Below are positions 38,365 to 42,679 of a DNA stretch of 64,000 bases, in pieces. Below the pieces are notes generated by a model. That model had not been told where the DNA came from. It ran no database searches and saw only the letters and a program-made list of their open reading frames with translations. The position numbers were made by a program, and so were the translations under genes. The number at the start of each line of letters is the position of its first letter. The first letter of the stretch is position 1. Origin of the DNA: Bacilli bacterium (GTDB lineage: Bacteria; Bacillota_I; Bacilli_A; RF39; UBA660); assembly GCA_017442305.1 (NCBI GenBank), contig JAFRZY010000006.1, positions 41,538-105,537 of the forward strand. The letters run 5' to 3'.

Positions 38365-38500
38365 TTTTCTTTTCCTCCTTTATATAATAATCGGTTTAAT
38401 CCTAGTAAAGAATTGGAGTATTTCTAAACCACGAATAAACTTTCTATAACATTATATTATAAAATGTTTTAAAAATCAACCAAAAACTTGAGTTTACTTA

Positions 38501-38529
38501 TTGTGTAACATATAGCTATATAGTATAAT
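38501..38529 (+). promoter_or_regulatory. sigma-A-type promoter of the small-peptide transcript (TTGTGT-17-TATAAT)
   Basis: -35 38501-38506; -10 38524-38529; predicted TSS ~38536. Confidence 0.45.
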
Positions 38530-38537
38530 TTTTACTA

Positions 38538-38564
38538 GGAAATACTAACTGTTGAGTACTTGCC
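38538..38564 (+). ncRNA. 5' leader segment complementary to the transcript 3' end (fold-back element)
   Basis: GGAAATACTAACTGTTGAGTACTTGCC pairs with GGGTAAGTACTCAACG...GTTAAGTATTTCC at 38731-38768. GAGTACT/AGTACTC palindromic units at 38561-70, 38685-94 and 38737-48 allow alternative pairings. Confidence 0.45.
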
Positions 38565-38595
38565 AACTTTCTTCTAGAAAGGAGGCTTGATTTTT

Positions 38596-38685
38596 ATGAA
38601 GAAAAAAGATTTATTAATCTCATTTCTTATGTTAATTATCATTTTATTAATAGTCTCTTTAATGATTCTATGTATAAAAAAATAG
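38596..38685 (+). CDS. 29-aa hydrophobic peptide MKKKDLLISFLMLIIILLIVSLMILCIKK (candidate type I toxin)
   Basis: Not in the ORF track (too short). Strong RBS GGAGG 10 nt upstream of ATG. Single predicted TM helix with Lys at both ends. Own promoter and terminator. Confidence 0.4.
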   Translation: MKKKDLLISFLMLIIILLIVSLMILCIKK

Positions 38686-38730
38686 TACTCAATCTATCTT
38701 CGTAGATTAAAGTACTTTAACTATTTTTTA

Positions 38731-38780
38731 GGGTAAGTACTCAACGCTCGAAAAGTTAAGTATTTCCCTTTTTTATTTTA
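38731..38780 (+). terminator. 3' fold-back arm plus T-tract terminator of the small-peptide transcript
   Basis: GGGTAAGTACTCAACGCTCGAAAAGTTAAGTATTTCCC followed by TTTTTTATTTT. Confidence 0.45.
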
Positions 38781-38805
38781 TGCAAGTTTTCTTGCTTACA
38801 TACTA

Positions 38806-39544: not shown

Positions 39545-39983
39545 TTATATTTTCACCTTTAAATTCTTCTTGCATCATTTTAAAGATTTCTTTTCGTTCA
39601 CTTTCATTAAAAATATCTTTTTGTTTTTTAAATCTATTTAAATCCCATTTCCAAAAGTTATATCCAAAATGTCTGTCTTTATATACTTTTCCAAATAACT
39701 TTAATTTTTCTTTGTATCTTGGAACAAAATGATAATGTACATGTGGAGTTTCATTGTCGCGATAAGCATTGTTCATTAAACAACAAAAGTTGAACATAGT
39801 AGCATTAAATAATTTTTCACAAACTCTTTCGAGTTCTTTTTCAATTAAACCAAGTTCTATCCAAGCATCTGGTTCTAAATCACTTAAAGACTGTTTATTG
39901 TTACTTACGATACAATAACCGGGATGGTCTTGACTCCAAACACCATATATTACATCCCAATATTTACCTTTATATAATTCCAT
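39537..39983 (-). CDS. HIT-family nucleotide hydrolase
   Basis: Histidine triad HVHYHFVP. Overlaps the downstream gene by 8 nt. Confidence 0.7.
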   Translation of the reverse strand: MELYKGKYWDVIYGVWSQDHPGYCIVSNNKQSLSDLEPDAWIELGLIEKELERVCEKLFNATMFNFCCLMNNAYRDNETPHVHYHFVPRYKEKLKLFGKVYKDRHFGYNFWKWDLNRFKKQKDIFNESERKEIFKMMQEEFKGENING

Positions 39984-39990
39984 ACAAACT

Positions 39991-40602
39991 CTACTTTCTA
40001 ATATTTTCTATAGATGATAACTCATTGTTTTCAAAAACTAATTTAAATACTTCAGGAGCATTCCAAACAAAATTATTATCAATTACCACATTGTCTTTGT
40101 AGTAAATAATGTTATCTTTATATTCTCCTAATTTCATAAATAAAAATGTTATTGCTGTACCATGCGAAACTATAGCTATTTTTTTACCTAAATTATTGTT
40201 TAAAGTTTCGTATAATGCTTCATACATGCGATTAGCAACTTCTATCTGCGATTCACCATTTCCTATTTTAAAATTTGGTTCTTCCTTTTGTCTTTGTTCA
40301 AAATTTTCTGGCAAATCACTCCACTTTAGTATGCCGTGTTTTCTTTCACCAAAATTTTCATTAATATGAATTGGTGTATCATTATCATAAGCAATATATT
40401 TCGCTGTAGATATAGCTCTTACATAATTGCTAGAGATTATTAAATCAATATCTTTAAATTCGGGCCATTTACTTAAAGATTCCGCTCTTTTTTCACCTTC
40501 AACTGATAAAGCATTTTTAACACCATAAGTCGGCAGATTATCACTAATTATTTCATCTTTTAAAGGTTTAGAATGTCTAATTAAATATATTATTGTTTCC
40601 AT
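39991..40602 (-). CDS. histidine phosphatase family protein (phosphoglycerate-mutase-like)
   Basis: RHG-type catalytic motif LIRHSK and C-terminal SHGTAI. Confidence 0.75.
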   Translation of the reverse strand: METIIYLIRHSKPLKDEIISDNLPTYGVKNALSVEGEKRAESLSKWPEFKDIDLIISSNYVRAISTAKYIAYDNDTPIHINENFGERKHGILKWSDLPENFEQRQKEEPNFKIGNGESQIEVANRMYEALYETLNNNLGKKIAIVSHGTAITFLFMKLGEYKDNIIYYKDNVVIDNNFVWNAPEVFKLVFENNELSSIENIRK

Positions 40603-40606
40603 ATTA

Positions 40607-41236
40607 TTACTTTCTTTCTATATTTAAAATGTCTTCTTTAGTATATAAATTATATACACCATATTCTGAAACTAAATATCCTATAATAAAATTAGGCCTA
40701 ATATAATAACTGCCATTTTTTATTTCATATATATTATCTTCAAAACCCGGTAGTACATTTCCTTCTTGATCTACATATTCAGATGGAAATGCAAATAAGA
40801 TAGAACCATTTGAACCTTTATAACTCCCCTTTAACATAGGAATAGTATGAAACATATTATTTACAAATGAAATTGTCTTAGTTAAATCAGGAATATCATG
40901 TGTAGCTCCTTGTGAAATTTGAGCATCATTTCTTAATCCTGAAGACATTATACTTTTTAAAGTATCATCATTTTTATCAATTACTAAACTACTACGGTGA
41001 ATACCTATGCGAACACTAGGCTCTTTCAACAAATTTTCAATGTAACTCCCAATTTCTAAAGGAATAGCACTTCCCAAATTATCCCAACTAGCACATAAAT
41101 TATAAAAATATTCTAATTTTTCTGAATCATTACCACACTTATTTATTACATCTTGCATATCTTTAGAATTGATTAAATAATAACAATTGCTATTTATACC
41201 TTGCTTTTGTAAGTTTTCTATTTTTTGTTTTATCAT
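40607..41236 (-). CDS. hypothetical protein (209 aa)
   Basis: ORF tightly packed in the operon (4-8 nt gaps). No family recognised. Confidence 0.45.
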   Translation of the reverse strand: MIKQKIENLQKQGINSNCYYLINSKDMQDVINKCGNDSEKLEYFYNLCASWDNLGSAIPLEIGSYIENLLKEPSVRIGIHRSSLVIDKNDDTLKSIMSSGLRNDAQISQGATHDIPDLTKTISFVNNMFHTIPMLKGSYKGSNGSILFAFPSEYVDQEGNVLPGFEDNIYEIKNGSYYIRPNFIIGYLVSEYGVYNLYTKEDILNIERK

Positions 41237-41244
41237 ACTAACAC

Positions 41245-42594
41245 CTAACCTATTTTAAATAATATTATAAATGTTATTGAAATAAGTATTAAACTCATAG
41301 ATATTAACATTAATATTAAATTAATTTTTCCAGCATCGTTTAAATCTGTTGTTGGTTTCTTTTTAACTAATTTTGGCTCCTCTTCAACTTTTTGTTGTTG
41401 ATCATCGGCAATTTGTCTGCTTTGTTCTTTTTCCGCTACCATTTTTATGTTAGGCACAAATTTACTCATAAACCATTGCTGTTCACTAAAATCTAGTTCA
41501 TGAGAACATAGATTAGAAACTGAACTAATTACTTCTTCTTCACTGTTAGAACATTTTTGACTAAACACTTTAATATCATCATAATAATGATTAAATAGGC
41601 AATTTAACAAGTTTGATTTAGGAATTAAATACCCATTAATTTGTTGATACCCTTCCGGAATCGAAGGTATGTGAATTGTAGAATTATCAAATAATGGAGC
41701 AAAAGAAACATCACCATATCCACTTAAAATAACTCCGTAGTTATTCTTATTTCGATCAACATTGTTAGTAACGTAATCTAACATTATCATGTTAAAATAA
41801 TCTTGTCTTATAACTCTGGCTGAATCTTCTGGTATTTTCAAAGATTTTAAAGCGCTTAAAAATGAATTTATAACTATTTGAACGTCCATTTCATTTCTAA
41901 CTACAGGTATTTTATAAGAATTTTCATTTGATTTAGCCACTACAGTATGTTTAGTTTTTCCTATTCTTTCAAGTTCTTGCGCTAAAGCAATTATATCAGG
42001 ATCATTGCGATCTATAAACCTTGTTACTTGACTGTAAGTATATAAAGTTTCATTATCATTACAAACATTTTCAGAAATAATTCCTAAATAAGAATTATCC
42101 TTATATACTTTATAGGTTTCTGCCATTTTAACATCAAACAATTTTCCAATTTGACATATCACATATTCTAATTTATCAAGAGTTGTACTTGATGTATTTG
42201 CACTATTTTTATAAAAGCCATTTTTATAGCCAAAATTAACATTAACTGGTGCATTATGACTATCTGATACTTTATTAACAACTTCTATATCAGCACTAAT
42301 AATATGAGGATACCCATTTCCGTCTATGCTTTTTAATGTTAATTCTTCATTATTATAATCTTCTATTTTAACTTTTTTTAATCTTGCTTGTTCCTGTTCT
42401 CTTATTAAGCTTGATATTTTATTTGATACAAGAATATCTATCTCCTTTTTTATTTCTTCTATAGATTTATTACAGTTAATATACTTTGATACAATTTTTT
42501 TGTAAGTATCATCACTGATCAAATGACCACGCTTTAAAAATTCATCTCTAATCCGATCAATATATTCAATTACCAATTTGTTTTTTACTTCCAT
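41245..42594 (-). CDS. membrane-anchored protein with putative HipA-like kinase C-terminal core
   Basis: YVTNNVDRNKNNYGVIL and SFAPLFDNS resemble the HipA_C catalytic (D.H.KN) and activation (APAYD) motifs. C-terminal TM KINLILMLISMSLILISITFIILF. Confidence 0.4.
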   Translation of the reverse strand: MEVKNKLVIEYIDRIRDEFLKRGHLISDDTYKKIVSKYINCNKSIEEIKKEIDILVSNKISSLIREQEQARLKKVKIEDYNNEELTLKSIDGNGYPHIISADIEVVNKVSDSHNAPVNVNFGYKNGFYKNSANTSSTTLDKLEYVICQIGKLFDVKMAETYKVYKDNSYLGIISENVCNDNETLYTYSQVTRFIDRNDPDIIALAQELERIGKTKHTVVAKSNENSYKIPVVRNEMDVQIVINSFLSALKSLKIPEDSARVIRQDYFNMIMLDYVTNNVDRNKNNYGVILSGYGDVSFAPLFDNSTIHIPSIPEGYQQINGYLIPKSNLLNCLFNHYYDDIKVFSQKCSNSEEEVISSVSNLCSHELDFSEQQWFMSKFVPNIKMVAEKEQSRQIADDQQQKVEEEPKLVKKKPTTDLNDAGKINLILMLISMSLILISITFIILFKIG

Positions 42595-42679
42595 AGTATC
42601 ACTACCCTATAATCCAAATATATTATAACACAAATAATTAGCAACATAAAAAGTTGACACAAATTCGTGTCAACTATCT

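Follow-up and report, generated by a model that had tools for sequence, protein, structure and literature searches.

The analysis presented here concerns five tightly packed genes that lie between truB and rpsO in a 64,000-nucleotide stretch of DNA (hereafter, the window; contig JAFRZY010000006.1, positions 41,538 to 105,537) from a metagenome-assembled genome available at NCBI as 'Bacilli bacterium' (proteins MBQ6687212-17). This interval is probably a composite transcription unit, formed by a resident, likely active and membrane-tethered kinase of the HipA/CtkA type that does not belong to a toxin-antitoxin (TA) system (K), an optional K-linked gene (U209) whose product may have an ADP-ribosyltransferase (ART) fold, and an independently mobile cassette encoding a histidine phosphatase (HisPhos), a histidine triad (HIT) hydrolase and a phospholipase C (PLC)-like protein. 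K would be a lineage-specific kinase of a clade of uncultured gut Bacilli, tethered by a tail anchor to the cytoplasmic face of the membrane, and most likely an ATP-dependent Ser/Thr kinase acting on a membrane-proximal target, probably a protein. The cassette, on the other hand, would hydrolyse nucleotide-type substrates, travel apart from the kinase and borrow the promoter of K.

The K family is small, with 35 homologs among 5.8 billion proteins, and a scan of GTDB species representatives found only six distant kinase relatives, without the window's own lineage among them. When compared with the PDB, the family profile matched CtkA (3akj, 7e-5) and a Legionella HipT (0.07), with its residues VDRNKNN...FAPLFD aligned onto FDRHNGN...APIFD of CtkA. 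The Pfam family HipA_C was touched by 21 of 27 K relatives at E<=1 (best E 2.8e-6), and the homolog of locus L020 reached 23.3 bits for a cutoff of 30.5, whereas the K protein of the window shows no Pfam match at E<=0.1, stays below the curated HipA_C threshold and falls into no NCBIfam family. Because these HipA_C scores are sub-threshold, the K family is a divergent branch of the HipA/CtkA-like kinase superfamily (PF07804). In the 27-homolog alignment, where identity goes down to 26%, residues K129, E143, D280, R281 and N285 are invariant and D303 is kept in at least 90% of the sequences, while, as to the Gly-rich loop and the activation loop with an autophosphorylated Ser that are listed for Hip kinases (PMC8262856), a G126-F-Y-K129-N-S131 stretch is conserved at the expected P-loop site, although the alignment to CtkA is weak there (3.3 bits). 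Homology would assign ATP binding to K129 and E143, the role of catalytic base to D280, and Mg2+ binding to N285 and D303.

The AlphaFold (AF2) model of K (predicted local distance difference test, pLDDT, of 85.6; predicted template modelling score, pTM, of 0.77) shows a HipA-type kinase fold, and its top structural matches are protein kinases; the catalytic Asp...Asn and the Mg2+-binding Asp of the superfamily are present in the alignment. Four parts can be distinguished: an N-terminal three-helix domain (residues 1-80), the kinase core (~83-400), a disordered linker holding a PKLV[KR]xKP motif, and a transmembrane (TM) helix (421-448). As this helix is preceded by basic residues and the protein lacks an N-terminal signal sequence, the predicted topology suggests a cytoplasm-facing, tail-anchored enzyme. 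Profile, catalytic residues and model agree in this way with the HipA-like kinase core proposed in a preliminary description of the locus, with no assignment to a non-kinase family, and the C-terminal helix accounts for the membrane anchoring that it had also claimed. Conservation within K is highest in the catalytic lobes and the TM helix (61-66%), and lowest in an insert at 187-234 (33%) and in the C-terminal helical region (40%). Shorter versions of the kinase, lacking both the N-terminal domain and the anchor, occur as single genes in unrelated settings. A particular case is the ortholog P0008 (L017, 8673-9992), which carries Asn instead of the Mg-binding Asp303 (LFNNS in place of LFDNS) and may be a pseudokinase; its genome is the one where K is trailed by U209 only.

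The gene neighbourhoods of nine homologs, close or moderately close to K, were recovered, and about ten contexts were sampled in all. K comes directly after truB in all seven close relatives sampled; it trails truB by ~85 nucleotides (nt) in the window and in loci L001, L003, L008, L009, L016 and L017, and it is the constant gene across relatives, whereas the other four are present or absent among close relatives. The separability of the parts is seen in what follows truB, which can be K alone (L008), K-U209 (L017 and L018), K-HisPhos-HIT (L003 and L004), K-HisPhos-HIT-PLC without U209 (L016, whose K is 89% identical to that of the window) or the K-U209-HisPhos-HIT-PLC order of the window and L009. 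A ten-gene version occurs in L001 and L002, where K precedes nine cargo genes coding, in this order, for a 357-residue HExxH protein, HisPhos, a 184-residue protein, HIT, PLC, a 281-residue protein, a DUF4932 protein, a 47-residue protein and a NUDIX protein. L020 represents a more distant lineage from the human gut, with a truB 51% identical; there K stands alone, 4.8 kb downstream of truB, in the company of mutL, miaA, gpsA, lspA and rluD. K is, in sum, an old resident of the truB-rpsO slot and not a recent insertion.

These arrangements bear on the proposal that the five genes are one coherent, undescribed accessory module inserted as a block into a housekeeping locus. The content of the interval is accessory indeed, as the four non-kinase genes come and go and the same five genes do not occur in all relatives, but a block insertion is countered by the loci with K alone or with K and U209 only, by the absence of U209 from L016, and by the recurrence of HisPhos-HIT in three unrelated neighbourhoods without the kinase. 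A recent insertion with target-site duplications was set aside, given that the module is flanked only by AT-rich repeats at chance level; its GC content is uniformly low (~0.21-0.28) and shows no contrast with the surroundings. A phage or plasmid origin was also rejected, since tblastn searches of K and U209 against GenBank phages gave no matches, those in IMG/VR span only a ~40-residue catalytic loop, and the HIT protein has a single match of 31% identity.

The histidine phosphatase reaches 73.3 bits on Pfam His_Phos_1 (2.7e-20; cutoff 21.7) and, with its RHSK motif at residues 9-12 and the second His in an SHG motif, belongs to branch 1 of the superfamily; in NCBIfam, the best models (cobC-like and PspA-like) scored far below their cutoffs, and no equivalog cutoff was reached. 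The HIT protein, with 22.3 bits on Pfam HIT (cutoff 21.5) and an intact histidine triad (HVHYHFV), is a member of that superfamily, and its PDB matches (2oik, 4e-7; NitFhit, 7e-5; Fhit, 0.08) place it in the Fhit branch. The PLC-like protein passes the Zn_dep_PLPC threshold marginally (1.1e-6, 29.1 bits; cutoff 26.8), has no PDB relative that could be found by sequence, and lacks a signal peptide (its N-terminus is MASWSIHL), unlike secreted PLC toxins. The three enzymatic assignments made previously are therefore supported by Pfam. The HIT family is large and highly conserved, with 703 matches, more than 120 of them at 65-84% identity, and it exceeds the kinase family about 20-fold (703 vs 35 matches). 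HIT homologs stand beside a His_Phos_1 gene, with no kinase and away from truB and rpsO, in L028 (HIT-NUDIX-HisPhos), L029 (HisPhos-HIT) and L030, where the order is HisPhos-HisPhos-(184-residue family fused to a P-loop)-HIT-x-(281-residue family). The latter locus repeats the HisPhos-184-HIT-x-281 order of L001 and adjoins a single-stranded DNA-binding protein (SSB) gene and small open reading frames (ORFs), a neighbourhood that suggests mobility. Because HisPhos-HIT recurs without K in these loci, HisPhos-HIT(-PLC/NUDIX) is a phosphoesterase cassette in its own right, which in some genomes came to lie downstream of K. The phosphatase and the HIT hydrolase, which had been read as partners of the kinase, are consequently neither its obligate partners nor its antidotes, as the pair occurs without the kinase and the kinase without the pair.

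A different picture emerges for U209, whose family comprises 11 homologs, all at least 60% identical. It lies directly behind K in four of four contexts (the window, L009, L017/L018 and a 2.3-kb contig common to P0011 and P0044). Its model, of moderate confidence (pLDDT 77), contains an extra N-terminal helical domain and a tentatively ART-like region (~75-209), in which the invariant residues H80-R81-S82, Y139-K140-x-S142-N143-G144 and E191-Y192 fall on successive strands, as ART motifs do. A Foldseek search with the model was not significant, but its two best matches, IcmQ and cholera toxin A1, are both ART-like; the comparison of the sequence profile with the PDB and a Pfam scan of all 11 members returned nothing relevant. 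On the basis of the model, the chances that U209 adopts an ART fold can be put at slightly better than even. Compared with R-S-E and H-Y-E ART toxins and with Tpt1/KptA, U209 shows no detectable sequence similarity, and it departs from them in its extra N-terminal helical domain and in the lack of any secretion or toxin-delivery domain.

The genes of the region evolve at very different paces. Protein identities between the window and its syntenic relatives amount to 94-100% for NusA, InfB, Pnp and RpsO, 82-95% for RbfA, 80-84% for TruB, 80-81% for HIT, 76-79% for PLC, 70-76% for HisPhos and ~70% for U209, and drop to 49-55% for K. Pairwise matrices describe a star-like set of species, in which K shows 46-65% identity for all pairs save that of the window and L016 (89%), so that K is the fastest-diverging gene locally (46-65% vs 94-97% for InfB and Pnp). 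As the synonymous divergence (dS) between the window and L016 is 0.43 for K and ~1.0 for the flanking truB, rbfA and HisPhos genes, the K allele of this pair was exchanged between lineages. The ratios of nonsynonymous to synonymous divergence (dN/dS) for the same pair are 0.07-0.17 in all genes, which indicates purifying selection, and positive selection as the cause of K divergence is unsupported at this depth, with a dN/dS of 0.13 for K against its closest allele. As a separate observation, TruB is 80-88% identical among relatives (L001-L017) whose InfB, Pnp and NusA are 94-97% identical, and truB, which adjoins the variable slot, is unusually divergent for a housekeeping enzyme.

Parts of K also recur outside the kinase family. 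The tail, of the form GPKL[VT][RK]xKP - linker - G[KH]I[NS] - TM helix - basic end, is found on otherwise different proteins such as the 357-residue HExxH protein of L001 and two proteins of 578 and 760 residues in L007. An exhaustive profile search of 1.84 billion representatives recovered only eight carriers of this tail, among them P0049 (HExxH plus P-loop), P0051 (P-loop plus two HExxH motifs) and P0050. The last one joins a K-type N-terminal helical domain (36% identity over 69 residues, E=5e-8) and the tail to a different core, which could be nucleotidyltransferase-like to judge from a GG...DxD motif seen by inspection, with no Pfam support. Such reuse suggests that a small polymorphic family exists, in which the ends are kept and the catalytic middle is exchanged. 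The most distant long-form K (39% identity) lies in L007 (1-12702) within an array of large proteins, several of them with the K-type tail, alongside a DUF1963 protein, a protein whose HopA1 domain passes the Pfam cutoff (25.7 bits) and a homolog of the 281-residue cargo protein of L001; the array looks like an effector or immunity-type cluster. Finally, a Cys-rich protein of ~190 residues, absent from the window, sits beside distant kinase homologs in three unrelated contigs (L012, 1204-1620; L014, 7003-7566; L007, 9886-10458; 30-38% identity), and may be a conserved partner in that distant branch of the kinase.

Among described proteins, K can be compared first with CtkA (JHP0940) of Helicobacter pylori, with which it shares the HipA-like Ser/Thr kinase fold and the aligned catalytic motifs at a sequence identity of 14%. 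CtkA lacks both the N-terminal three-helix domain and the C-terminal TM anchor of K. Moreover, CtkA is reportedly a secreted, cell-translocating protein encoded in the plasticity zone of the pathogen, whereas K is tail-anchored and occupies a fixed chromosomal slot of gut Bacilli. In the survey of Hip kinases by Gerdes and colleagues, these enzymes are defined by four core motifs and by an adjacent, usually DNA-binding antitoxin (PMC8262856), and the words 'transmembrane' and 'phosphatase' have zero occurrences in that text. K carries the fold and the catalytic residues of the HipA and HipT kinases of hipBA and hipBST, but it differs from them in being membrane-anchored, vertically kept at one locus and able to stand alone. 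No adjacent antitoxin, helix-turn-helix (HTH) or HipS-like gene was found in the ~10 contexts of K, and Pfam finds no HTH neighbour, so that a canonical hipBA or hipBST was discarded; as the preliminary description had already noted for a HipB-like partner, the window shows truB and a terminator upstream of K and enzymes without HTH downstream. On the other hand, five PADLOC models of PDC-M03A match the kinase core (7.6e-10 to 2.7e-5). The PDC-M03 system consists of a HipA-like protein and a HIRAN-domain protein (PMC13245101), and neither a HIRAN domain (Pfam) nor any PADLOC model was matched among the neighbours of K in the window; this identity was rejected because of the missing partner.

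A TA or abortive-infection role could still be imagined in a non-canonical form, in which K would be the toxin and either the downstream phosphatase, by reversing the phosphorylation, or its own N-terminal domain would be the antidote. The HipA/HipT fold with its catalytic motifs and the histidine phosphatase of the operon would fit such a system, and in HipS/HipT there is a precedent for N-terminal pieces serving as antitoxins (PMC8262856), but the sampled contexts contain no adjacent small or HTH gene, K is single-copy, vertically kept and not patchy, in L017 it is accompanied by U209 alone, and a membrane anchor is not known in the described Hip families. This possibility seems very improbable, and K would not be a TA toxin, since it needs no neighbouring antidote in the loci where it stands alone (L008, L020). 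A housekeeping role in a membrane pathway is also unlikely, if less so. Here the substrate of K would be a lipid or a small molecule, as it is for PI4-kinases and aminoglycoside kinases, and nucleotide or phospho-intermediates would be handled by the hydrolases. In another version, the genes would serve to tidy up nucleotide or RNA ends, which would suit a neighbourhood concerned with RNA metabolism (truB, rpsO and pnp). The tether that puts K at a lipid surface, the wide and conserved, housekeeping-like HIT family, the purifying selection on all genes and the stable position of K among core genes speak for such a pathway, whereas its cargo is dispensable between near-identical genomes, which would be unusual for a pathway, K diverges much faster than core genes and resembles protein kinases most closely in structure, and no pathway-defining enzyme or transporter lies nearby.

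The serious rival, although a minority view in our assessment, is an integrated conflict or defence island. K and an ART-like U209 would then act as effectors by modifying targets of the cell or of phages, the hydrolases (phosphatase, HIT, PLC-like protein and NUDIX) would reverse or tune these modifications or degrade nucleotide signals, and the slot would be a diversifying hotspot. The rapid evolution of K and its allele exchange are in line with this idea, as are the gene content that varies between genomes with InfB and Pnp 94-97% identical, the matches of K to the candidate family PDC-M03A (7.6e-10) and of the L001 NUDIX protein to PDC-S07, the resemblance of U209 to ART toxins, the distant homolog beside HopA1-domain and DUF1963 proteins in L007, and the reuse of the K N-terminal domain and tail with nucleotidyltransferase-like, P-loop and HExxH cores, a polymorphism typical of conflict systems. 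However, K has stayed at one chromosomal position through deep divergence and stands by itself amid housekeeping genes in L020, its dN/dS gives no sign of positive selection, close relatives are missing from GenBank phages and IMG/VR, the HIRAN partner that defines PDC-M03 is absent and the PDC families are candidates only, and the hydrolase cassette occurs without K. A bolder and similarly doubtful version would make K the founder of a small undescribed family, in which the shared N-terminal three-helix domain and a 'GPKLVRTKP-GKIN-TM' anchor present interchangeable cores (HipA-like kinase, nucleotidyltransferase-like, P-loop NTPase or HExxH peptidase) at the membrane and, combined with a partner of ART fold and a mobile cassette of nucleotide hydrolases, make up a new, hypervariable type of conflict or immunity island that is fixed at the truB-rpsO slot. 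In any case, several points weigh against the composite unit that we favour. K is far more divergent than its flanks (46-65% vs 80-97%) and one of its alleles was exchanged, a behaviour that fits conflict genes better than a housekeeping kinase; the genes are packed tightly (gaps of 4-8 nt and an 8-nt overlap), as if coupled in translation, and might for this reason have a common function in this genome; U209 has been seen only beside K, and this speaks for a real functional link in at least that instance; and the support comes from ~10 contexts.

Features of the truB-rpsO interval and its borders in the window.
Feature	Positions	Strand	Remarks
truB	42680-43516	minus	TIGR00431, 237 bits
Intrinsic terminator of the upstream infB-rbfA-truB unit	42652-42675	minus	10-bp stem, 4 GC pairs, T-run
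Promoter-like site of the module, TTGCTA-16-TATATT	42617-42644	minus	consensus match only
K, kinase gene, 449 aa	41245-42594	minus	NCBI: hypothetical protein MBQ6687216.1
U209 gene, 209 aa	40607-41236	minus	no Pfam or NCBIfam family; hypothetical at NCBI
HisPhos, histidine phosphatase (branch 1, PGAM-like), 203 aa	39991-40602	minus	Pfam His_Phos_1
HIT hydrolase, Fhit branch, 148 aa	39537-39983	minus	Pfam HIT; hypothetical at NCBI
PLC-like protein (Zn-dependent PLC/P1-nuclease superfamily), 235 aa	38837-39544	minus	Pfam Zn_dep_PLPC
Hairpin and U-run closing the module	38676-38716	minus	spacer minimum free energy -30.1 kcal/mol, z = -4.73
29-aa hydrophobic ORF MKKKDLLISFLMLIIILLIVSLMILCIKK, outside the module	38596-38685	plus	GGAGG ribosome-binding site
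S15 leader overlapping the rpsO start, outside the module	38308-38418	minus	RF00114, 33 bits, E=6.4e-5
rpsO	38095-38364	minus	Ribosomal_S15; followed by pnp

Regarding the layout of the locus, the five minus-strand ORFs and their tight spacing are as previously described, with intergenic distances of 8, 4 and 7 nt and one 8-nt overlap between the HIT and PLC-like genes. The truB terminator, near-identical in L016, separates truB from the module, and the promoter-like site overlaps a TGnTATAAT-like extended -10 element with a spacer sequence that is also kept in L016; it is a putative promoter. No terminator-like sites were found inside the five-gene unit, and the five genes would be co-transcribed. 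The adjoining rpsO would form its own regulatory unit, as the S15 leader shows, with a match that is sub-threshold (the RF00114 gathering score is 39.5). The 29-residue ORF, previously pointed out as a 'type I toxin' candidate, is convergent with the module and shares the terminator hairpin tail-to-tail; near-identical copies exist in the same spacer of L001, L008 and L009, and it is absent from L003 and L017.

The absence of ribF from its position between truB and rpsO, which had called attention to this locus, holds: the interval has no ribF, no signature motifs of FAD synthetase or flavokinase appear in any frame of the whole 64-kb window, and no FAD_syn or Flavokinase domains are listed within ~10 kb of the slot in related loci. 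The module as a non-orthologous replacement of ribF was set aside, as K alone (L008) cannot supply both RibF activities and shows no similarity to flavokinases or FMN-adenylyltransferases. Two other variable slots occur in the region. The one between pnp and a VanY-like gene (window 34347-35717, minus strand) holds three ORFs of 214 (with an HEIEH motif), 107 and 148 residues, none with Pfam matches; it is empty in L001 and L009, contains two small ORFs in L003, and in L017 harbours a gene for a class I W/Y tRNA synthetase (PF00579, 6.4e-57). HipT kinases are said to target TrpS, which makes the presence of this gene near K intriguing. The slot between nusA and ylxR (window 46262-46762, minus strand) carries a 166-residue ORF with counterparts in L001, L009 and L017, and not in L003 or L008.

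A last consideration is what these genes would mean for the families involved. The kinase family, its scaffold and the variability of the slot are undescribed, and the novelty lies in a divergent, anchored and antitoxin-less branch of the HipA superfamily. The case is also a warning against taking the close packing of an operon in a single genome as proof that its genes work as one system. The repeated pairing of HisPhos and HIT (at times with NUDIX) in gut Bacilli points to an uncharacterised, conserved nucleotide-hydrolase unit. A head-and-tail scaffold with different cores is an unusual architecture; it recalls an inverted polymorphic toxin, in which the ends stay the same and the middle varies. 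To our knowledge, HipA-family kinases are known almost only as TA toxins or secreted effectors. A membrane-tethered, antitoxin-less and slot-fixed branch would widen the bacterial uses of the HipA fold, and K offers a clean candidate for finding a new kinase substrate.

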